Assembly: GCA_963792415.1 (NCBI GenBank) | Contig: CAWBVY010000004.1 | Span: 320,001 to 384,000, forward strand | Direction: 5' to 3' | From: Candidatus Deferrimicrobiaceae bacterium | Lineage (GTDB): Bacteria; Desulfobacterota; Deferrimicrobia; Deferrimicrobiales; Deferrimicrobiaceae | Length of the DNA stretch: 64,000 nt | Shown here: piece by piece, positions 27,430 through 44,134 of the stretch | Position numbering within the stretch: position 1 is the stretch's first letter | Layout: every line of letters starts with the position of its first letter | Made by a program: the position numbers and the translations under genes | Notes under the pieces: model-generated | What the model was told of the DNA's origin: nothing | Seen by the model: only the letters and a program-made list of their open reading frames with translations | Database searches by the model: none

Positions 27430-28203
27430 CTACCGGAGCAGCGCGAGGAGCGCCTCCGCCTCCATGTAGCCGCTGACCATGCGCCCGTCCGGGAGGATCA
27501 GCGTCGGCGTCCCCTCGATCCTCAGCCGCTCGGTGAGCCGGATCGTCTCGTCCACCGCGTCGCTCTTGCACGACGGGGCCGGCAGCTCCTTCCCGGCGTA
27601 GGCGTCGTCGAGCATCTTCTCCGATTTCGAGCAGACGACCGTCTGGCACTTCCGGTATGTGGCCTTGTCGTTCCTGTTTCGCGGGTACGGCATCACGAGG
27701 AACGCCACGTCCGGATCCTTCGCCACCGCTTTCTTGATCTCCCCGTGAAGCTTCACGCAATAGGGGCACGTCGGGTCGGACAGGACGATCACCGTCTTCT
27801 TCGCCGTCTTGCTCCCGATCCGGATGGCGTCCTGGACCGGGATGGCGGCGACGTCCACGCGGTTGAGGTCCTGGTACCGGAGTCCTGTGAGGTTCGCCAT
27901 GTCGGACAGGCGGATGAACTGCCCGCTGATGAGGTACTTCAGGGAATAGTCGAGGTAGAGGGGATAGATTCTCCCGTTCCGGACGACGTCCACCTCCCAG
28001 ACGCCGGGGAACGGCCCCGGCGCGACGGCGACGACGTTGTCAACGATCTTCGCGAGCATCTTCCCCGCCTCTTCCTTCGAGAGTTTGTGGCACTCCGAGC
28101 AGTCCCCGGCGGCCCCGGCCTCTTTCCGGAACGCATCGGCGGGAGCGGAAAGGCACAGGGCGAGAAACGCGGCAAGAACACAGGCGGACAGGAACGGTTT
28201 CAT
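27430..28203 (-). CDS. DsbC-family thiol:disulfide interchange protein with an N-terminal CxxCH
   Basis: Signal peptide; CSECH; DPTCPYC active site; IEGTPT cis-Pro loop. Confidence 0.87.
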   Translation of the reverse strand: MKPFLSACVLAAFLALCLSAPADAFRKEAGAAGDCSECHKLSKEEAGKMLAKIVDNVVAVAPGPFPGVWEVDVVRNGRIYPLYLDYSLKYLISGQFIRLSDMANLTGLRYQDLNRVDVAAIPVQDAIRIGSKTAKKTVIVLSDPTCPYCVKLHGEIKKAVAKDPDVAFLVMPYPRNRNDKATYRKCQTVVCSKSEKMLDDAYAGKELPAPSCKSDAVDETIRLTERLRIEGTPTLILPDGRMVSGYMEAEALLALLR

Positions 28204-28437
28204 CCGGGGTCTCCTTGGACAGGGATCATTGCTACAAGAAAGCATTGGTCAATTGTACAACGCCCCGTGTGGCATCCCGCCGAATTTCAGAATGCGTCGA
28301 CGGGATCCGCCCGTTCGCCCCCCCGGACGGTCGAATTCCGGATCATCGGCGCTTGCAGGCGAAAAACGTTGTTGCCACGAACGCGATTTTTTTGAGATTA
28401 TGGTTCATCAAAATACCGTCTTGCCTTGGGGGTACGA

Positions 28438-29760
28438 ATGGGAATCCGGACGACCGGGGGAATCCTCCGGAAGAGCCTCTCCCCAACGTTCCTTGTGATC
28501 GCCTTTTCCCTGATCCTTTCCGCCTTCCCGACCGGTCCCGCCGCGGCGGCGGATGTGACCGCCTCCTCGAAGACCTATGGCCTGTTGTTCGAGCGGGAGC
28601 TCGCCGGGGGTCAGAAGGACACCTACGCCCCGCTGTACGAATACCTGTCGGCGGACGCGGCGAACCTGGGCGGCAAACCGCTCTCCTTGCACTTCTACGG
28701 CTGGGGGCGGGTCGACCTCGGGGAGCAGACCGGGACCGGCAGTACGTCGGGGGAAATCAGCAGCCTCTACCTCGAGTACCAGCACCCGGAGGGGAACGCC
28801 CAGGGGAAGCTGGGTCGATTCTTCCTCACGGAAGGGGCGGCGATGGATACGGTCGACGGGGTGTTCGTCAAGGCGACGACTCCCGTCGGGCTGGGGGTTT
28901 CCCTCTACGGCGGCGTCCCCGTGGAGTACTCCATCCTGGAGAATGCCGGGAAGGGGGACTCCCTCTACGGCGGCCGGATCTTCTTCGTCAAGTCCGGATT
29001 CGCCGAGATCGGCGCCTCGTACCTGAAGGAGAACAATTCGTCCGACGCGCTGGACCGCGAGCTGTACGGCGGCGATCTGTGGGTGCGCGTCGGGGGCCCG
29101 GTGGAGTTCACCGGGAAGGCGTACTACAACAACTCCGCGAGCGAGATGGCGTCGCAGCGGTACGCGGTCCGGATCGTTCCCAATGCGACCTTCGACATCA
29201 CCGCGGGGTACGAGGCGTATAGTTACAAGGGGCTCTTCCGGTCGGCGCTGAACCCGGCGTTCACATTCCCCTCGGTGGACAACAACGACAAAGTCCAGAC
29301 GATCTTCGGCATCGTGGATTGGGAGTTCACCCCCGGCTGGACCCTGGAGGTGGCGGGGAAGAACATCCGGCACGACCTGTCGGATCCCGGCGACGCCAAC
29401 CGCGGCGAGGTCGGGGTGCGGCACACGTACAACGACAAGAAGGACGTGGCGGGGCTCTCCGCCGCCTTCGTTTCGGCCGACAGCGCGGAAAACGAGTACC
29501 AGGAATACCGCGCTTTTGCCACCTATTCCCCCGACAAGCTCCGGGTGACGCTTGACGGACTCATCCAGAACTACAAGCAGGAGATCAACGGAAAGAAGAA
29601 CGCCTACCAGGTGGTCGCCACGGCGGGGTACCAGGTCCTCGCCGCGCTGCAGGTCTCCGGCAACCTGACCTACACGCAGAGCCCGAACTTCGATAACGAT
29701 TATGCAGGCTTGATCCGGCTGAGCTACGACCTCGCCACCAGCACGGGAGGGAAGAAATGA
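28438..29760 (+). CDS. Outer-membrane beta-barrel porin of a porin-cytochrome conduit
   Basis: Signal peptide (..PAAAA|DV); alternating aromatic-rich beta-strands; terminal LIRLSY strand; ATGA overlap with the next cytochrome gene. Confidence 0.8.
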   Translation: MGIRTTGGILRKSLSPTFLVIAFSLILSAFPTGPAAAADVTASSKTYGLLFERELAGGQKDTYAPLYEYLSADAANLGGKPLSLHFYGWGRVDLGEQTGTGSTSGEISSLYLEYQHPEGNAQGKLGRFFLTEGAAMDTVDGVFVKATTPVGLGVSLYGGVPVEYSILENAGKGDSLYGGRIFFVKSGFAEIGASYLKENNSSDALDRELYGGDLWVRVGGPVEFTGKAYYNNSASEMASQRYAVRIVPNATFDITAGYEAYSYKGLFRSALNPAFTFPSVDNNDKVQTIFGIVDWEFTPGWTLEVAGKNIRHDLSDPGDANRGEVGVRHTYNDKKDVAGLSAAFVSADSAENEYQEYRAFATYSPDKLRVTLDGLIQNYKQEINGKKNAYQVVATAGYQVLAALQVSGNLTYTQSPNFDNDYAGLIRLSYDLATSTGGKK

Positions 29761-30227
29761 TGCGCCGCGCGCACGTCGCGAATATTCTCGGGGTGGCCCT
29801 TTTCGCCCTGCTGTTCGGTTGCTCCGCCGTTTCCCAGGCCCCTTCGGTGCCCCCGAAGCACCCGGAAGAGCTTCCGACCGGGCGGGTCAATTGCCTCGAA
29901 TGCCACGAGAACGTGTCCACCGGGGCGCTGAAGCCGTACGGGACGTTCCGCCACTCCCGCGTCTTCATCGATTCCCACGGCACGTACGCGCGGCAGGGGC
30001 AGAGCCTGTGCTCTTCCTGCCACAAGCCGGAGTTCTGCCAGACGTGCCACGCCGGGAAGGAGGAGCTGAAACCGAACACGAAGATGGGCGACCGGCCGGA
30101 CCGGAGGGCGCCGCACCGCGGCGACTACCTGGTCGCGCACCGGATCGACGGGCGCCTCGACCCCGGCTCGTGCTTCCAGTGCCACGGGAACAAGAACGAC
30201 GCGCGCTGCAGGCAGTGCCATCGGTAA
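29757..30227 (+). CDS. Pentaheme c-type cytochrome lipoprotein (ExtC-like architecture)
   Basis: Lipobox LFGC; CLECH, CSSCH, CQTCH, CFQCH, CRQCH. Confidence 0.9.
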   Translation: MMRRAHVANILGVALFALLFGCSAVSQAPSVPPKHPEELPTGRVNCLECHENVSTGALKPYGTFRHSRVFIDSHGTYARQGQSLCSSCHKPEFCQTCHAGKEELKPNTKMGDRPDRRAPHRGDYLVAHRIDGRLDPGSCFQCHGNKNDARCRQCHR

Positions 30228-30302
30228 AGCGTCCCGCGTCCTTCGAACGGACGATCTCGGGGAGCGTGGCGGATTCCAAGCGGTAAGAAGGAGGAGCGAG
30301 AG

Positions 30303-32522
30303 ATGTCGGGATCCCGAAAGGAACGGCCGTTGAGGCCTTTCATATTGCTGTCGCTCCTCGCGGCGCTGGCGTTTGCCGCCGGCTGCTCGACCGCCAATAC
30401 CCCCGGCGGGGAGAGCCACATCGACGCGTCCGGCAATTCCGTCTCCGGGTGGGTCGTCGTCCCCACCGGCGGGTCGCATTCCACTGTCGCCACGCAGGAA
30501 TATCTCTCCGGCAGCGGGAGCTTCAGTTGCACGCAGTGCCACGGAGCGGACCTCTCGGGCGGAATTTCCGCGGCCTCCTGTTACGGCAACCCGGCGGGAT
30601 GCCACCACGGCCCGGTGGCCGGGTGGGTCGCCACCCCTCCCGCAGCCCAGAATCACGGGGTTACCGCGAAGAAAGCCCCCGGTAGCTCCGGGTTCGCCTC
30701 CTGCCAGATCTGCCACGGGAGTGGATTCTCGGGCGGCGGGTCCCAGGTTTCGTGCTTCACCTGTCACGGGGTGAGTGCTCCGCACGCGCCGAAGCCGTGG
30801 CGCGGCTCCCCCTACACGCACACGAACGTCGACAATGCGAATGTACCGGTCTGTGCGCAGTGCCATTTCCCGGGGTCCCCGAACAACCCGGCGGACCATC
30901 CGGCCACGCCTGCCCCGGCGGGAACGCCGCCGGGCTGCTACAACAACACCCTGTGCCACGGGGAGAACCCGGTCCCTCACCCGGTGGGCGCAACCTGGGT
31001 GGCGACGTCGCCCGCGGCCCAGCCGCACGGGAACGATGCGAAAGCGACCCCGGGCGGGACCACAGGGTTCTCCTACTGCCAGACCTGCCATGGGACGGGG
31101 ACGAACTTCTCGGGCGGCTCGTCGGGGGTCTCCTGCTACCCGTGCCATGTACCGACCGCGAGCTCGCCGCATGCGTCGAATTGGCGGACCGGCGACACCT
31201 ACGTCCACACGACCACGGCAGAGGGGAACGCCCCGGTGTGCGCCTTCTGTCACCTGAACGGGGCGAACTCCCCGATCGCGGCGCCGAGCCCGCCCGCCCC
31301 GGATAACACCGCTCCCGGATGCTTCAACAGCACGCTGTGTCACGGTGCGGGGGGGGTCCCTCACCCGGTGGGCGCAACCTGGGTGGCGACGTCGCCCGCG
31401 GCCCAGCCGCACGGGAACAGCGCAAAGGCGACCCCGGGCGCGACCGCCGGGTACGCCTACTGCCAGGTCTGCCACGGGACGGGGACGAACTTCTCGGGCG
31501 GCTCGTCGGGGGTCTCCTGCTACCCGTGCCACGGGGCGAGCGCGCCACATGCGTCGCAGTGGCGGACCGGCGACACCTACGTCCACACGACCACGGCGAC
31601 GGGGAACGCCCCGGTGTGCGCCTTCTGTCACCTGAACGGGGCGAACTCCCCGATCGCGGCGCCGAGCCCGCCCGCCCCTGCGGGGACGGCGCCCGGATGC
31701 TTCAACAGCACGCTGTGCCACGGATCGGGGGGCATCACGCATCTGGTCCCGTACAACGACGATTCCCACTACTCGGTGACGTCCACGACGTTCCCGGGGA
31801 GCTGCAGCGCCTGTCACGACGTTTCCACGCCGTCGGCGAAGGCCGGGCCCGTCTGCCAGACGTGCCATGTCGCGGCCTCGCCGCTCGCGGCCGCCAACTG
31901 CGCCTCCTGCCACTCCAGCCCGCCGGACGGCGGCGCTCCCGCGGGGGCGGCGTATGCGAACATCGCAGGGGCGCATGCCGCGCACATCGCCCTGACCAGC
32001 ACGGGAACCCCGATCTCCTGCGATACCTGCCACAACGGGCTGGGGAGCGGATCCCTGAACCATTACAACCGCGCCAAATCCCGGGTATCGCCCGGGGACG
32101 CGGCGTTTCTGACCACGTACAACGCGAAGACCGGAGCGTCGTCGTTCGACAACTCCGCCGCACTCAGCTGTTCGAACGTCAGCTGCCACGGGGGACAGGC
32201 CACCCCCAACTGGCAGACGGGCGCGCTCAACGTGAACACCCAGTGCACGAATTGCCACGCCTCCGGAACGACGCAGTACAACGGCTACAGTTCCGGAGAG
32301 CACTCGACGCATGTCGACGGGGAAGGTTTTCTTTGCACGGTATGCCACAACACCACCACGCTCGCGGTGAACCATTTCACCACGCTTGGCACCACGGCGA
32401 TGGAGGGACCGGCTTCCGCGACCATCGGAGGTACGGGAACGAATGTAACCAGCTACTCGGCCCCATCGTGCACCCCCTCCTTGCCCGCTAGCCAGGGTTG
32501 CCACGGGACCAGGTCCTGGTAG
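30303..32522 (+). CDS. Large multiheme c-type cytochrome lipoprotein (16 CxxCH plus 6 CXnCH)
   Basis: Lipobox AAGC; motifs counted in the translation; CSNVSCH..W..CTNCH Geobacter-type CxxxxCH/CxxCH unit; GGAGG RBS. Confidence 0.92.
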   Translation: MSGSRKERPLRPFILLSLLAALAFAAGCSTANTPGGESHIDASGNSVSGWVVVPTGGSHSTVATQEYLSGSGSFSCTQCHGADLSGGISAASCYGNPAGCHHGPVAGWVATPPAAQNHGVTAKKAPGSSGFASCQICHGSGFSGGGSQVSCFTCHGVSAPHAPKPWRGSPYTHTNVDNANVPVCAQCHFPGSPNNPADHPATPAPAGTPPGCYNNTLCHGENPVPHPVGATWVATSPAAQPHGNDAKATPGGTTGFSYCQTCHGTGTNFSGGSSGVSCYPCHVPTASSPHASNWRTGDTYVHTTTAEGNAPVCAFCHLNGANSPIAAPSPPAPDNTAPGCFNSTLCHGAGGVPHPVGATWVATSPAAQPHGNSAKATPGATAGYAYCQVCHGTGTNFSGGSSGVSCYPCHGASAPHASQWRTGDTYVHTTTATGNAPVCAFCHLNGANSPIAAPSPPAPAGTAPGCFNSTLCHGSGGITHLVPYNDDSHYSVTSTTFPGSCSACHDVSTPSAKAGPVCQTCHVAASPLAAANCASCHSSPPDGGAPAGAAYANIAGAHAAHIALTSTGTPISCDTCHNGLGSGSLNHYNRAKSRVSPGDAAFLTTYNAKTGASSFDNSAALSCSNVSCHGGQATPNWQTGALNVNTQCTNCHASGTTQYNGYSSGEHSTHVDGEGFLCTVCHNTTTLAVNHFTTLGTTAMEGPASATIGGTGTNVTSYSAPSCTPSLPASQGCHGTRSW
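30972..31724 (+). repeat. Intragenic tandem duplication, period ~384 bp (128 aa); a third, diverged copy lies at about 30610-30965
   Basis: GTCCCTCACCCGGTGGGCGCAACCTGGGTGGCGACGTCGCCCGCGGCCCAGCCGCACGGGAAC occurs at 30972 and 31356, and near-identity continues through the unit. Confidence 0.93.
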
Positions 32523-32562
32523 GAACGCCGGCTTCGCCGGCGCCGCGTTCCAAGGCGGGATC

Positions 32563-32602
32563 CACGGAAGCCCCGGTCGAAACGACCGGGGCTTCCGTGT
32601 TT
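32563..32602 (+). terminator. Perfect 17-bp hairpin after the cytochrome operon
   Basis: CACGGAAGCCCCGGTCG-AAA-CGACCGGGGCTTCCGTG followed by TTT. Confidence 0.8.
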
Positions 32603-38283: not shown

Positions 38284-38784
38284 CTACTTCAGCGTGCGCA
38301 GGTACGCGACGACGAGCCAGCGCTCCTTCGCGGTGAGGTCGGAGCGGAACGGGGGCATGCCGTTCCATCCGTGCGTCACGATGGCGAACAGCAGCCCTTC
38401 GGGGGCCTGCCCGAATCCCGTTGCCGAGATGTCCACGGGGGTCGGGACGAACTTCTTCGCCACGGGCCCGTCGCCCTTGCCCGAGGCGCCGTGGCACGGT
38501 GCGCAGTAGATGCCGAACAGCTCTTTCCCGGTGAGGAGGGAGAAGTCGGTCGCCTTCTCCGGATTCCTGAGGGCCGCGGCCTCCGGGGTCCCCGGCATCG
38601 GGGTGTGCTCCAACCCCTTCGTCGGGACGGAGCCCGCAGGGGGAAGGCGCACCGGCTCCTCCTGGGGGCGGAACGCCGGGTTGTCGTACATGTTCCGGTC
38701 GAGCTTCTCGCAGCCGGCGAGGAGCGCCATGCCGAGGAGGGCGGCGACGAAAACGGCGAGCCGGGCGGGGGGGATTCTCCTCAC
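38284..38784 (-). CDS. Monoheme cytochrome c lipoprotein (ActE-like)
   Basis: Lipobox LAGC; MYDNP..PQE; CAPCH; distal MPPF; GTGA overlap. Confidence 0.85.
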   Translation of the reverse strand: MRRIPPARLAVFVAALLGMALLAGCEKLDRNMYDNPAFRPQEEPVRLPPAGSVPTKGLEHTPMPGTPEAAALRNPEKATDFSLLTGKELFGIYCAPCHGASGKGDGPVAKKFVPTPVDISATGFGQAPEGLLFAIVTHGWNGMPPFRSDLTAKERWLVVAYLRTLK

Positions 38785-39305
38785 AGTTCCCCCTCCTCGG
38801 GCCGCACGTCGATCCCGCCGGCGGATTTCATCGCATCCATCGCCCGTCCCGCCTGCTCGTCGCCGGAGACCCGCGCGCACAGCAGGATCTTCCCCTCCTG
38901 GATCCGCGGGTCGTGGATCAGCCGGGTGCGGAACCGGCAAAGCCCCATCTCCCGGAACCCCGCGATGACCGTTCCCGCCAGCGCGCCGAGCATCGCAACC
39001 TCGTAGGTGATGATCAGGGTCGGGGGAACGGAGATGATCGCCTTCCCGCCCGTGATCAGCGGGTAGAGCAGGTAGGTTCCCAGCGCGAGGGAAAGCCCCG
39101 CGAGCGCGCCGACGAACCAGCCGACGAGCGTGACCCTGGGGAACCCGATCCCGCGCGGGTCCCTGCAGACGGCGCCGTCCGGGAGCGGCATGGGGGAGAG
39201 GGTCGTGACGTCCCCCTCCGGAAGGGGGAGGGCGCGCAAGGCGCGCGCCGCCGCCGCCGCCGGAGCGACCGCGTCGAACAGCCCGACGACCACGATGCCG
39301 TTCAT
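38781..39305 (-). CDS. ActD-like (DUF3341) subunit of alternative complex III
   Basis: VVGLFD, LSPMPL, YPLITGGK and ITYEVAML motifs; 2 TM helices. Confidence 0.85.
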   Translation of the reverse strand: MNGIVVVGLFDAVAPAAAAARALRALPLPEGDVTTLSPMPLPDGAVCRDPRGIGFPRVTLVGWFVGALAGLSLALGTYLLYPLITGGKAIISVPPTLIITYEVAMLGALAGTVIAGFREMGLCRFRTRLIHDPRIQEGKILLCARVSGDEQAGRAMDAMKSAGGIDVRPEEGEL

Positions 39306-40692
39306 CCGTGCCCCCCTTTCCCCGTGTCGTGCGGCATGGCGATCGACTCGACCGTCACGTCGCCGATCTTCCGGTCGGAGGTGTGGAAGAGGTGCTCCTG
39401 GATGTCGCTGATCGCCATGATCGGGAAGAGCTTGGTGAAGACGGTGTACAGCAGGAGGAACATGGCCAGCGCGCCGGCCATGATCGAGAACTCCACCCAG
39501 GAGGGGAAGTAGTTGTGCCAGATGAACGGGTCGTTGCGCCGCGCCAGCGACGGGACGACGATCAGGAACCGCTCGGCGTACATGCCGATCACGACGAGGA
39601 GGGAGACGAAGCTCAGGGCGGGGACCGAGCGGCGCACCCTGCGCATGCACAGCAGCGGGAAGGAGACGACGAAGTTGCACCCGATCATGACGAGGAACAG
39701 GGGGAGGTAGTCGCCCGCGTAGGAGCGGAAAACCTCCCACTCCTCGGGGTTCCGGTTGTACCAGACGGTGAGGAAGTCCGAGAAGTAGAAGTAGCCCCAC
39801 AGGAGCGACATGGTGCACAGCAGCTTTCCGAGGTTCTCGAACTGCACGACCGTGAGCACCCGCTCCAGGCGGAACACCTTCCGGAGCGCCGCCATGACGA
39901 TCACCACGGCGGCGATCCCGGAGAAGATCGCGCCCGTGACGAAGTAGGGGGCGAAGATCGTGCTGTGCCACCCGGGGACCTTCGCCATCGCGAAGTCCCA
40001 GCCGACGATCGAGTGGACCGAGACGGCCACCGGGATGATGAGGATCGCGAAGATCGTCGAGGCGACGTGGTAGCGCCGCCACTCGTTGTGGGACCCCCGG
40101 AACCCCAGCGCGAGCACGGTGTAGAACTTCTTCCTCCACCCCGTCGCGTGGTCGCGTGCGATCGCCAGGTCGGGGATCATCCCGAAGTAGAGGAAGGTGA
40201 GGCTCCCGAGCAGGTACGTGTTGATCGCCACCGCGTCCCACATGAGGGGGGATCGGAGGTTGGGCCACAACTGCCGCGAGTTGGGGTAGGGGATCATGTA
40301 GTAGAACCGCCAGTTCCGCCCGATGTGGATCAGCGGGAAGAGTCCGCCGACCATCAGCGTGAAGGCGGTCAACGCCTCCGCCCCGCGAAGGATGGGGGCG
40401 CGCCAGGTGGCGTTGGTGAGGCGGAGGATGGCGGAGATGAGGGTGCCCGAGTGGGACAGGCCGATCCAGAAGACGAAGGATCCGATGAAGGAGCCCCACA
40501 TGACGGGGCGGTTGAGCCCGGTGACCCCCATCCCGGTCTTCATCATGTAGACGAAGCAGCCGATCCCCCAGAGGGCGACGATCGCCAGCAGCCCCATCCC
40601 CATCCACCACTTTTTCGTGGCGGGGAGGTTCGACCGGGAGAGCTCCCGATAGAGCGCGCCCGGGTCGGTCCGGGAGAGATGGTCGCTCCCGT

Positions 40693-40696
<4 letters not shown>
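39302..40696 (-). CDS. NrfD/PsrC-family quinol-binding membrane subunit (ActC-like)
   Basis: FVFWIGLSHSGTLISAIL, IHIGR, SPLMWD, VSVHSIVGWDFA and WHSTIFAPYFVTGAIFSG motifs. Confidence 0.92.
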
Positions 40697-41391
<695 letters not shown>

Positions 41392-41446
41392 CGCTTCTAC
41401 CGCCCCCCGTCCGCGAAACGTGGATGTTCCCGGGAACTCCCGGGGG

Positions 41447-43612
41447 TCACATCAAATTGCTGATCTTCCATTGCCCCTCCGGGTGCGCGAACCGGACCAG
41501 CCGGGTGGAAAGTTTCGTCTTCGTCAGGGCGACCCGCGTCGACTGCAGCGCGTACGTCTCCCCTGCCGGAAGGAGGGCGATCGGGTTTTCCCCTCTTCCG
41601 TTCGCGGTTTTCCCGTACCGGGTGTGCCCCTGCCCCAGCGGCATCGCCGCGACGTCCGGGGCGACGCCCGGGTTGAACGTCACGTGGGCCGTGATCTTCC
41701 CGGAAGGCGACGTGACGGTCACGCCGTCCCCCTCGGAGAGGCCCAGCCCCGCTCCCGTCTTCGGGTTCACCTCGACCCAGTTCCGCCACACCGCGGTCGA
41801 GACCGGATCCGGCATCTCCTGGAGCCACGCGAGGTTCGCCCCCCGGCCGTCGTAGAGGGTCACGGAAGGGTAGAGGTGCAGCGCCAGGGGGAACGCCTTC
41901 GGGTCGCCGTCGATGGGGCGCTCCGTCGCTTTCGGGAGGACGACGTTCCCCGTTCGGGCCGCGAACCGCGGAGAGGACGACTCCCCGAAGAAGCCGCCGC
42001 GCCGGAGGGCGGCCTCCATCTCACCGCCGGGGCCGCCGTACGCCTTGTCGAGGCACTCCTTGAACGACCGCCACGGGAGCGCCTTTGCGGGTTCGCCGCC
42101 CAGTTCGCCCGCCGCGGCGATCAGGACGTCGGGCATCGACCGGGTGTCGTGGAACGGGACCACCACCGGCTGGCAGAGGGTGACCGCCCCGGAATGCCCC
42201 ACGGGGGCGAGATCGTCCCCCCAGGTCTCGAGGGCGGTCGGGACCGGCAGCACGAGGTCGGCCTGCGACGTCGTCTCGTCGAGGAAGGAGGCGAAGGCGA
42301 CGACGAAGGGGACCTTCGACAGCGCTTCGCTGAATTTGACCGAAGGCGGGAGGGTGAACGCGGGGTTCGTCGCCCCCGAGAGAATCGCCATCCGGAACGC
42401 CCCGCCGCGCATTTTTTCGATTGCGTCGCGCATCCCCGCGTACCCGCTCTCCGGGGATGGGGCGAGCAGGGCGGCGTCCGCCCCGTACTTCGCGAAGGCG
42501 ACTGCGCGGTTCGGGAACGACACCCCGCCGGGCCTCCCCACGTTCCCCGCGAGGACGTTCAGGAGCGCCACGGCGCCGCAGTGGAACGTCCCGTCGGGGC
42601 CGGTCGCGGCTCCCGTTCCCGGGATCGCGATGCCCGGCTGGTTTCGCGCGAACTCCTCCGCCACCGCGGCGATGTCGTGCGCGTGGACCCCCGTCAGTCT
42701 CTCGACCGCCTCCGGGGAATACGCGGACAGATCGTCCGCAAGCCGCCCCGCGACCGCGGCGGCAAGCCGGTCCCGCACCATCACGTGCGCGATCCCGAGG
42801 GCGACGATCCCCTCCGTGCCCGGGGCGCACGGCAGGAACAGGTCGGCGGCGGCGGCGGTCATAGAGAGCCGGGGTCCGAAGTGGATGAATTTCCCCCGGA
42901 TCGTCTCGCGGTCCCCCCGCATCCGGCCGTACTCCCTTGCGTAGTGCACAGGGGAGATGCCGGTCTCGAGGAAGTCGCCGGAGAAGGAGAGCAGGTACCG
43001 CGCGTTCGCCAGGTCGTGCTCGGGCAGGTCGCGGACGCCGTGGACCGCATCGTTCGCGGACAGCATCGCGTCGGCGCCGAACGGGTCCCAGGCGACGCGA
43101 TGCTTCGATCCGAACGCCTTCATGAACCGGCCCGCAACGAGCCCCGCGTGGCCGCGCATCGGGTCGGTGAGCATCAGGAGCGACCCCGGCGCCTCGGCCT
43201 TCACCTTCTTCAACGGGACCATCAGGAGGGAGAGCGCCTCTTCCCAGGAAATCGGCGCGTAGGTCCCCGAACCGCGCCCCCCGGAAAGCTTCATCGGCCG
43301 CGAAAGCCGTTCCGGGTGATAGAGCGCCTGAAGCGCCGCCTGCCCCCGGGCGCACAGCCGGCCGCGGTTCACCGGGTGGAGCGGGTTCCCCTCGATCTTC
43401 TTCGCACGCCCTTCGGAGACGCGGACGACGATCCCGCACCCGGCGGGGCACTGTCCGCACACCGAGGCGTACCAGAGCGCCTCGCCCAGCGTGACGTTCT
43501 CCGGGGGTATTACGAACGGGATGAGTTTCCGCGGAATCTTTTCGCATCCGCCGAACAGGGTGGCGAAGGCCGTCGCGCCGCCGAGTTTCAGGAATTGCCG
43601 CCGATCGAGCAT
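41447..43612 (-). CDS. Molybdopterin-oxidoreductase-fold subunit, TAT lipoprotein (ActB1/QrcB-like)
   Basis: DRRQFLK TAT motif plus FGGC lipobox; CGQCPAGC..LCARG; WLQEMPDP. Confidence 0.9.
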   Translation of the reverse strand: MLDRRQFLKLGGATAFATLFGGCEKIPRKLIPFVIPPENVTLGEALWYASVCGQCPAGCGIVVRVSEGRAKKIEGNPLHPVNRGRLCARGQAALQALYHPERLSRPMKLSGGRGSGTYAPISWEEALSLLMVPLKKVKAEAPGSLLMLTDPMRGHAGLVAGRFMKAFGSKHRVAWDPFGADAMLSANDAVHGVRDLPEHDLANARYLLSFSGDFLETGISPVHYAREYGRMRGDRETIRGKFIHFGPRLSMTAAAADLFLPCAPGTEGIVALGIAHVMVRDRLAAAVAGRLADDLSAYSPEAVERLTGVHAHDIAAVAEEFARNQPGIAIPGTGAATGPDGTFHCGAVALLNVLAGNVGRPGGVSFPNRAVAFAKYGADAALLAPSPESGYAGMRDAIEKMRGGAFRMAILSGATNPAFTLPPSVKFSEALSKVPFVVAFASFLDETTSQADLVLPVPTALETWGDDLAPVGHSGAVTLCQPVVVPFHDTRSMPDVLIAAAGELGGEPAKALPWRSFKECLDKAYGGPGGEMEAALRRGGFFGESSSPRFAARTGNVVLPKATERPIDGDPKAFPLALHLYPSVTLYDGRGANLAWLQEMPDPVSTAVWRNWVEVNPKTGAGLGLSEGDGVTVTSPSGKITAHVTFNPGVAPDVAAMPLGQGHTRYGKTANGRGENPIALLPAGETYALQSTRVALTKTKLSTRLVRFAHPEGQWKISNLM

Positions 43613-43633
43613 CCGTTTCCTCTCGCGTCCCCG

Positions 43634-44134
43634 TCAGTAGTGGCAGGTCCAGCAGTCGATGGAGACCTTCTTCTTCCGGTGGCACTCCATGCAGAAGCCC
43701 ATGCCGAACTCGAGTTTCTGCTCCGCCGTCCCCGCCTGGTCCATCCCCGGGTGGCAGGTGAGGCAGGCGATCCCCGCGTTCACCATCTTCCGGTGCGGGA
43801 AGTAGACGTGGTTCGGGACGTCGATCACCTTGTTCCACGGGATCGGCTTCTTCCCGTTCCAGTATTCGGCGACCTTCTTCACCTCGGGCTTGTCGGTCGC
43901 GATCGACCGGTGGCACATCATGCACTTCTCGACCGGGGGGAGATTCGCGAACTGGGATTTGTTCGTGGAGGAGTGGCAGAACCGGCAGTTCAGCTTGTAC
44001 TCCGTGACGTGGATCTTGTGGGAAAAGGCGATCGGCTGGGGGACGGTTTCGGCGAGGGCGGATCCCGCGGACAGGAAAAGCGCAAGGGCGAGACCAGCGA
44101 GGGGAATCGCGGCGTTGATGGGCCTGCGGGCCAT
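43634..44134 (-). CDS. Pentaheme cytochrome c (ActA/QrcA-like)
   Basis: QPIAFSHKIH; CRFCH, CMMCH, CLTCH, MGFCMECH, CWTCHY. Confidence 0.92.
   Translation of the reverse strand: MARRPINAAIPLAGLALALFLSAGSALAETVPQPIAFSHKIHVTEYKLNCRFCHSSTNKSQFANLPPVEKCMMCHRSIATDKPEVKKVAEYWNGKKPIPWNKVIDVPNHVYFPHRKMVNAGIACLTCHPGMDQAGTAEQKLEFGMGFCMECHRKKKVSIDCWTCHY

Follow-up and report, generated by a model that had tools for sequence, protein, structure and literature searches.

A disulfide isomerase that carries a heme attachment motif beside a porin-cytochrome operon raises two questions: whether the isomerase is itself a hemoprotein, and whether it serves the cytochromes encoded next to it. The case analysed here comes from a member of the genus Candidatus Deferrimicrobium (candidate phylum MBNT15/Deferrimicrobiota), in a stretch of 64,000 nucleotides (contig CAWBVY010000004.1 of assembly GCA_963792415.1, positions 320,001 to 384,000) that is called the window throughout and has a G+C content of about 67%. 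Within it, a DsbC-like gene is divergently arranged with an operon for an outer-membrane porin and two multiheme lipoproteins. A preliminary description of this DNA had proposed that the DsbC is a hemoprotein forming a dedicated maturation system for the neighbouring cytochrome, especially for its long CXnCH heme loops. The first part of that proposal is retained here as probable and the second is not supported: the conduit and a general heme-motif DsbC are probably two separate units that are chance neighbours in the Deferrimicrobiaceae. What deserves to be followed further is the subfamily of heme-motif DsbC proteins.

The window encodes a divergent DsbC with an added N-terminal tail

The DsbC-like gene and its two motifs, both checked in the translation, are:

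27430..28203, minus strand: dsbC-like gene, 257 amino acids, comprising a signal peptide, an N-terminal CxxCH tail, a DsbC_N-type dimerisation domain and a thioredoxin domain
28087..28101, minus strand: CSECH, residues 35-39, putative c-type heme attachment site
27757..27768, minus strand: CPYC redox active site, residues 146-149, with C146 and C149 invariant in a 48-sequence alignment

A longer open reading frame reaches 28245. The start at 28203 is favoured because close homologs are almost all 257 amino acids in length, and because a genus-conserved TACAAT box (28252-28257, minus strand) and a promoter-like site identified by a promoter scan (28252..28225, minus strand) both lie upstream of it. 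The signal peptide ends in ...APADA and is followed by FRKEAGAAGDCSECH. CSECH lies, as the preliminary description had it, just after the signal peptide, within the Sec-exported N-terminal tail and about 10 residues past the predicted AxA cleavage site. CPYC follows CSECH by 111 residues, and three more cysteines come after it at positions 186, 191 and 212. All three had been described as extra, and all three are present; C191 and C212, each found in 82% of the motif-bearing representatives described below, align in HMMER with the structural disulfide of solved DsbC chains, which we take to be C141-C163 of the helical insert in E. coli numbering, so that only C186 is truly extra.

Several lines of comparison place the protein in the DsbC family. 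Pfam searches returned Thioredoxin_2 at 63.2 bits (cut-off 27) and DsbC_N at 24.2 bits, slightly below its cut-off of 25. CPYC, together with T232 and P233 of the cis-Pro loop, was invariant in an 8-sequence alignment, and CPYC aligned with the active-site cysteine pair of those solved DsbC chains that matched best (FTDITCGYC). A profile built from 48 family members and searched against the PDB matched E. coli DsbC (1eej, E 2.4e-30, residues 5-211), and also Salmonella and Yersinia DsbC (E of about 1e-30), over nearly the whole mature length. The matches to solved DsbC begin only at profile position 41-43, and the CxxCH segment is therefore an extension with no counterpart in those structures. 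An AlphaFold2 model, which contains no heme, had a predicted local distance difference test score (pLDDT) of 93.7, with values of 56-77 in the CxxCH tail; the top Foldseek matches of this model were full-length DsbC structures, with about 220 columns aligned. The NCBIfam DsbC equivalog NF008129 was matched at 72.6 bits and its cut-off of 215 was not reached, which makes the protein a member of a divergent DsbC subfamily and not an equivalog. It is a true DsbC-family member with an added N-terminal tail.

The CxxCH motif is conserved across a wide DsbC subfamily

C35, C38 and H39 were invariant in the 48-sequence alignment (26-44% identity). CxxCH was also present about 111 residues before the active site in all 38 DsbC frames from 23 congeners and 6 sister-family genomes, a count that takes in a tandem DsbC paralog at about 48% identity; across the genus, DsbC identity is 73-85%. 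Among 1.84 billion cluster representatives searched, 3067 matched at E <= 0.001, and the motif was counted among the best 150 of these, 111 of which were near full length. An N-terminal CxxCH was found in 63 of the 111 (64 if P0128, with CKDCH at residue 122, is counted), while 43 had nothing at that position and only 2 were real cases of CxxC without histidine. Conservation of the histidine had been named in advance as a check on the heme proposal, and with these 2 exceptions the residue is kept wherever the cysteine pair is present.

A scan with the 8-sequence alignment identified 80 loci in named genomes, where 73 of 85 DsbC frames carried CxxCH. The named carriers belong to the Deferrimicrobiaceae, the Desulfuromonadales (Geomonas, Geomesophilobacter, Trichlorobacter) and the Nitrospirota/Thermodesulfovibrionales, all of them cytochrome-rich lineages, and include the cultured Geomonas paludis, Geomonas diazotrophica, Geomesophilobacter sediminis and Trichlorobacter thiogenes. 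The same set of loci contains a metagenome-assembled genome of Syntrophaceae whose DsbC is without CxxCH. The consensus around the motif reads F-x3-G-C-x(3-4)-C-x-x-C-H-x-L-x3-E-A. When the N-terminal columns were left out of tree building, the trait was clustered, requiring 18 changes against about 36 in shuffled data, and none of 500 shuffles was as low. Residues of the N-terminal domain also varied with the motif: K88 was present in 82% of carriers and 25% of non-carriers, W69 in 77% and 33%, and F86 in 59% and 12%.

The conservation of CxxCH at a fixed spacing, its histidine included, makes it likely to be a real c-type heme site, and the motif marks a subfamily. CxxCH-bearing DsbC is a wide and so far undescribed DsbC subfamily, wider than the preliminary description supposed, and no description of a heme motif in DsbC turned up in full-text literature searches.

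In many congeners two CxxCH-DsbC paralogs, about 48% identical, stand in tandem with the porin operon on one side and ccdA on the other, at loci L010, L013, L017-L022, L032, L036 and L037. One type reads FTGEGCxSGACTDCH and has a third cysteine upstream of the motif; the type found in the window reads AFRKEAGxxxxCxECH and has none. Genomes G007 and G009 carry the third-cysteine type only.

Adjacency of dsbC to the porin-cytochrome operon is confined to the Deferrimicrobiaceae

The preliminary description noted the shared divergent spacer, estimated at about 230 bp and measured here from the dsbC start at 28203 to the porin ATG at 28438:

28204..28437, no strand assigned: divergent spacer, 234 bp, with two back-to-back promoter-like sites

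The promoter scan placed the plus-strand site at TTGCCA (28372) ... GATTAT (28401). An alignment of 32 spacers showed the minus-strand TACAAT, the plus-strand box and the ribosome-binding site with its ATG to be conserved in at least 80% of them. Beyond the two promoter-like boxes and the ribosome-binding site, no shared palindromic operator was evident in the spacer.

The porin gene adjoins dsbC in 24 of 24 loci of the genus, against none of 6 in the sister family, and the divergent arrangement recurs in Deferrimicrobiaceae loci L031-L038. Outside the Deferrimicrobiaceae, a multiheme gene was found in the flanks (up to 8 kb) of 1 of 71 CxxCH-DsbC loci. The gene follows lysA-dapF-dapA-dapB in the Nitrospirota; in the Geobacteraceae it comes after pilD and the genes for a histidine kinase and a sigma-54 regulator, and in other lineages it stands beside tgt/queA or icd. 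Those Geobacteraceae that have a homologous porin/5-heme module keep their CxxCH-DsbC at a separate locus. Linkage of the orthologs to cytochrome operons was the observation on which the preliminary description had staked its dedicated maturation system; outside the Deferrimicrobiaceae the orthologs are unlinked, and the proposal therefore fails on its own terms.

Six Geobacteraceae loci (L087, L099, L100, L104, L106 and L108) encode a protein of 1600-1990 amino acids directly downstream of dsbC, and the copy at L104 had no Pfam match.

Redox partners and heme machinery in the genome

The genome contains a single DsbC match and 30 reading frames with at least two CxxCH motifs. A convergent acyl-CoA synthetase gene lies 28 bp past dsbC; the gene immediately past dsbC in 8 congeners is ccdA, in the same orientation. 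A DsbD_TM match was found in 16 of 24 congeners. A search for DsbD/CcdA membrane domains, which excluded 72 kb of contig C6, gave no match in this genome; nor was one found in five other genomes of the genus (92-99% completeness) that keep the heme-motif DsbC, and DsbB was likewise without a match in this genome. The position of ccdA directly after dsbC in 8 congeners points to the classical reducing route and to an isomerase/reductase role. Where neither CcdA/DsbD nor DsbB was found, DsbC could exchange electrons with the cytochrome pool by way of its heme, a prediction that we regard as a reasonable inference. The earlier idea that DsbC draws on the heme network rather than on DsbD is compatible with these absences.

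A 438-amino-acid protein encoded elsewhere in the genome (G000 C6:758483-759799; L121:808-2124, minus strand) gave two sub-threshold matches, to VKOR at 24.7 bits and to Thioredoxin_4/DsbA-like at 20.7 bits. It may be a VKOR-thioredoxin fusion that serves as the periplasmic oxidant in this genome, where DsbB had no match.

Heme attachment machinery of the System II type is present, with three PF01578 (CcsA family) matches and ResB in two frames, all above cut-off. The main ResB/CcsA pair is at C6:538959-541212, with a 4-heme gene beside it. With CxxCH conserved throughout the subfamily, a Sec-exported tail to carry it and a System II lyase in the genome, this DsbC is probably a hemoprotein, as had been proposed.

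Two further CcsA-family genes lie apart from the main pair, at C1:226274-227722 and at C6:911100-912666, the latter beside a short ResB-like frame. Both are candidate lyases of the CXnCH sites. No cytochrome gene adjoins either of them, and with no odd-motif cytochrome beside these paralogs no dedicated lyase is assigned to the sites.

The porin-cytochrome operon and its relatives

The porin, the 5-heme lipoprotein and the large multiheme lipoprotein were recovered at the coordinates first given for them, in one terminated operon:

28438..29760, plus strand: outer-membrane beta-barrel ('porin'), 440 amino acids from the conserved ATG, no cysteine
29757..30227, plus strand: 5-heme lipoprotein cytochrome, 156 amino acids, lipobox LFGC, five CxxCH motifs, Pfam Cytochrome_C7
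30303..32522, plus strand: 22-site multiheme lipoprotein cytochrome, 739 amino acids, lipobox AAGC
32563..32602, plus strand: intrinsic-terminator-like hairpin, 17-bp perfect stem (32563-32599) with an AAA loop, then TTT

No match to the porin was found in Pfam or NCBIfam. Its AlphaFold2 model (pLDDT 67.8, predicted template modelling score 0.57) has a signal helix followed by 22 long strands in antiparallel order; Foldseek returned 306 PDB matches at E <= 0.001, with a best E of 1e-9, and the top-ranked among the matches listed were outer-membrane barrels. The start of the 5-heme gene overlaps the porin stop by 4 bases. Both lipoboxes have serine at +2, and lipoprotein localisation is predicted for both cytochromes. 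The 739-amino-acid cytochrome contains 16 CxxCH and 6 CXnCH motifs (one CX4CH, three CX5CH, one CX6CH and one CX9CH), and NCBIfam TIGR01904, the CxxxxCH/CxxCH domain, matched it at 28.7 bits. Its 45 cysteines are made up of the lipid-anchor cysteine and 22 pairs (44 cysteines, all C...CH). Since every non-anchor cysteine is paired and the CX4-6CH sites are kept in orthologs, 22 heme sites is a fair count. The hairpin at 32563-32599 was read from the sequence and was not listed by a consensus terminator scan; the segment 32555-32610 folds with a minimum free energy of -43.7 kcal/mol. No periplasmic multiheme cytochrome is encoded between dsbC and the terminator.

At 95-99% likeness, contigs from 4 metatranscriptome libraries of 4 studies cover dsbC, the genes for the barrel and the 5-heme protein, and the first part of the large cytochrome gene. 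One contig of 1620 nt bridges the porin/5-heme junction and others span the junction between the 5-heme and large cytochrome genes; coverage is thin or missing over about 31650-32350 of the 739-amino-acid gene, a region that is uninformative either way. These contigs are a hint, not proof, that dsbC and the conduit genes are expressed. In RNA-library contigs from two runs, 61 bases (30227-30287) of the spacer between the two cytochrome genes (30227-30303) are replaced by 3, and close relatives therefore have these genes almost abutting.

Homologs of the porin were found in three named Geobacteraceae genomes with E down to 2e-65, and homologs of the 5-heme protein, 44-48% identical, directly follow the porin homologs in the same three genomes. 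Geomesophilobacter sediminis and Geomonas paludis each have three such adjacent pairs and Geomonas diazotrophica has two; in both Geomonas genomes one pair is flanked by a cytochrome before it and a cytochrome after it. The cytochrome that precedes the module in Geomonas paludis has an MtrC/MtrF domain, and a 49% identical homolog of it is encoded in the present genome (G000 C4:626900-627958, L146), about 280 kb from the window's module, as a possible further conduit component.

The window also holds an alternative-complex-III-like (ACIII-like) cluster (38284-44134, minus strand) encoding a 166-amino-acid pentaheme cytochrome, a 721-amino-acid molybdopterin-family protein, a 692-amino-acid NrfD-family membrane protein and a 218-amino-acid monoheme cytochrome c. 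It is probably the counterpart of one of the ACIII-like clusters described for Ca. Deferrimicrobium borealis, as far as the available text of that genome paper goes (PMC9386147). Its 5-heme protein (43634-44134), the second in the window, was considered as a paralog of the conduit's 5-heme protein and rejected, the best E being 0.06; it belongs to the ACIII-like cluster.

Discussion

Two separate units, a conduit and a general heme-motif DsbC, are the probable explanation of the locus. The conduit, a barrel of about 22 strands with a 5-heme and a 22-site lipoprotein from one operon, would pass respiratory electrons across the outer membrane, and its periplasmic cytochrome partner would be encoded elsewhere. 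The DsbC would act as the genome's single DsbC-family periplasmic thiol-disulfide isomerase/reductase, with a role throughout the periplasm and not for the adjacent operon alone. Among its probable clients are all the multiheme apocytochromes, roughly 30 in number, in which the abundance of cysteine pairs would favour wrong disulfides. The CxxCH at the mature N-terminus would most likely be heme-loaded by the System II lyase, and the heme might then couple the CPxC redox centre with the pool of periplasmic cytochromes, as an electron input, an electron output or a redox gauge. In congeners the downstream ccdA would supply the classical reducing route, which is apparently absent from this genome. 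Heme occupancy, client range and the role of the heme are thus what we infer.

Several observations weigh against this explanation or limit it. A heme on the DsbC CxxCH is predicted from sequence, and among the motif-bearing representatives compared no carrier-specific conserved methionine or histidine was found that could serve as a distal heme ligand. A third cysteine lies 3-5 residues upstream of the motif in 48 of 64 carriers and could mark a metal or thiol site. CxxCH has been lost or gained several times, well-supported branches forcing at least 6 changes, and the motif is therefore not essential to DsbC function. The adjacency of dsbC and the porin gene is genus-wide and the promoter elements in their shared spacer are conserved, so some co-regulation, or a preferred-client relation of dsbC with the porin operon, may exist. 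The absence of CcdA from this genome is uncertain, given the 72 kb of contig C6 outside the search. The RNA-library contigs may include DNA, and they do not show strand or transcript ends.

How far these points carry depends on what they would support instead. The genus-wide divergent arrangement, with its recurrence at L031-L038, is what would be expected if the heme-DsbC were a dedicated maturation factor for the adjacent operon, keeping the cysteine pairs of the 22-site cytochrome, and above all those of its CX4-9CH sites, reduced or correctly paired. The CXnCH sites are real and conserved, and a protein with 44 heme cysteines is an obvious DsbC client. We nevertheless consider a dedicated factor very unlikely. 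The only DsbC match in a genome with about 30 multi-CxxCH frames would have far more than one cytochrome to attend to; adjoining cytochromes are missing from 70 of 71 loci outside the Deferrimicrobiaceae and from 6 of 6 sister-family loci, and the Geobacteraceae with homologous porin/5-heme modules hold their CxxCH-DsbC elsewhere. Odd heme motifs, moreover, have a known route of their own in dedicated CcsA/CcsB-type lyases, such as Wolinella CcsA1 for CX15CH, and this genome has three CcsA-family matches and two ResB-carrying frames. The upstream cysteine and the missing distal ligand bear on a different alternative, in which the N-terminal C-x(3-4)-C-x-x-C-H would serve instead as an additional thiol or metal centre, for example a Cu(I)- or Zn-binding or disulfide-relay tail, and would adapt DsbC to metal stress as in the copper-sensitivity (Scs) systems. 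DsbC/ScsC relatives are tied to copper stress in the available part of one preprint (bioRxiv 10.64898/2026.10.17.759849), and ScsC structures were among the PDB matches. The third cysteine is, however, absent from the window protein and from its whole paralog group, the histidine is kept with the cysteine pair in all but 2 real cases among 111, and all named carriers come from cytochrome-rich lineages. The motif lies in an unstructured Sec-exported tail, and such tails are heme-loaded by System I and System II lyases. This alternative is the main one to a genuine c-type heme site, and we think it unlikely; the site itself is, on the sequence evidence, likely to be genuine.

A heme need not mean an isomerase. 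In a cell without DsbB, a heme-DsbC could work as an oxidase in place of DsbA, taking electrons from substrate thiols and handing them by way of its heme to the cytochrome pool, and the search results are compatible with this in that no DsbB match, no CcdA/DsbD to keep DsbC reduced, and only the sub-threshold VKOR and Thioredoxin_4 fusion (24.7 and 20.7 bits) were found. Against it stands the gene order of the 8 congeners, where ccdA, the conductor of reductant, directly follows dsbC in the same orientation and suggests that DsbC reduces or isomerises. Also kept is the two-domain DsbC architecture, which shields E. coli DsbC from DsbB. We find an oxidase role improbable and return to the general isomerase/reductase.

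If that protein does carry heme, a bolder proposal can be made, which we put forward tentatively and rate below an even chance: CxxCH-DsbC would be a heme-c-tagged disulfide oxidoreductase exchanging electrons directly with the periplasmic multiheme cytochrome pool, by which metal-respiring bacteria could poise or recycle their thiol-disulfide system without DsbD/CcdA or DsbB. To our knowledge, recycling of periplasmic Dsb proteins always runs through membrane thiol relays, DsbD/CcdA for reduction and DsbB/VKOR for oxidation. Were the proposal true, a DsbC dimer would have two hemes, one for each electron of a disulfide, and this genome and at least five near-complete congeners that keep the heme-DsbC, and in which no CcdA was found, would already run on the heme route alone. 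A DsbC with its own covalent heme would directly link the respiratory cytochrome network to protein disulfide chemistry, and CxxCH-DsbC is common in bacteria that fold dozens of multiheme proteins, namely the Desulfuromonadales, Nitrospirota and Deferrimicrobiota.

Comparison with known systems

The closest structural reference for the window protein is E. coli DsbC (PDB 1EEJ, and the DsbC-DsbD-alpha complex 1JZD), with which it shares the N-terminal dimerisation domain, the linker helix and the thioredoxin domain at a Foldseek E of 2e-13 and about 25% identity. Common to both are CxxC followed by xKLH, the GTPT cis-Pro loop and the structural disulfide. The window protein differs in having a CxxCH N-terminal tail that solved DsbC structures do not have, and in its active site, which is CPYC where E. 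coli DsbC has CGYC. DsbD, the partner of E. coli DsbC, had no match found in the window's genome. A second reference is the pathway of CcdA with ResA/CcsX or CcmG, in which the gene for a periplasmic thioredoxin-fold protein is paired with that for CcdA, as dsbC is in 8 congeners. Like that pathway, CxxCH-DsbC occurs in cytochrome-rich cells. DsbC here has the predicted dimeric DsbC architecture and a heme motif of its own, in contrast to the membrane-anchored monomeric TlpA/ResA fold, and no counterpart of the pathway's ccdA was found in the window's genome. Among described proteins, Gmet_2250 of Geobacter metallireducens is a DsbC/DsbG homolog for which the available text mentions no heme motif (PMC2700814); Geobacteraceae loci carry CxxCH-DsbC homologs at 33-37% identity, and Gmet_2250 is likened to these by description only.

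The conduit is best compared with ExtABCD of G. sulfurreducens, for which the accessible part of the source gives a layout of an ExtB barrel, ExtC with 5 hemes and ExtD with 12 hemes, and in which extBCD clusters without extA nearby are also recorded (PMC6148476). The order of barrel, 5-heme lipoprotein and larger multiheme lipoprotein is the same in both. Unlike ExtABCD, the window operon is without a periplasmic ExtA-like cytochrome; according to the same partial source, its last cytochrome exceeds ExtD with 22 sites (6 of them CX4-9CH) against 12, and its barrel has 22 predicted strands against the 18 transmembrane domains reported for ExtB. By analogy, the window conduit may be called ExtBCD-like, its homology running through the Geomonas and Geomesophilobacter pairs and its likeness to G. 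sulfurreducens ExtB and ExtC being by description only. The Deferrimicrobium genome paper, in its available text, reports four cytochrome clusters and no porin-cytochrome cluster (PMC9386147). This ExtBCD-like operon offers a concrete candidate for how electrons cross the outer membrane during iron reduction in the Deferrimicrobiota.

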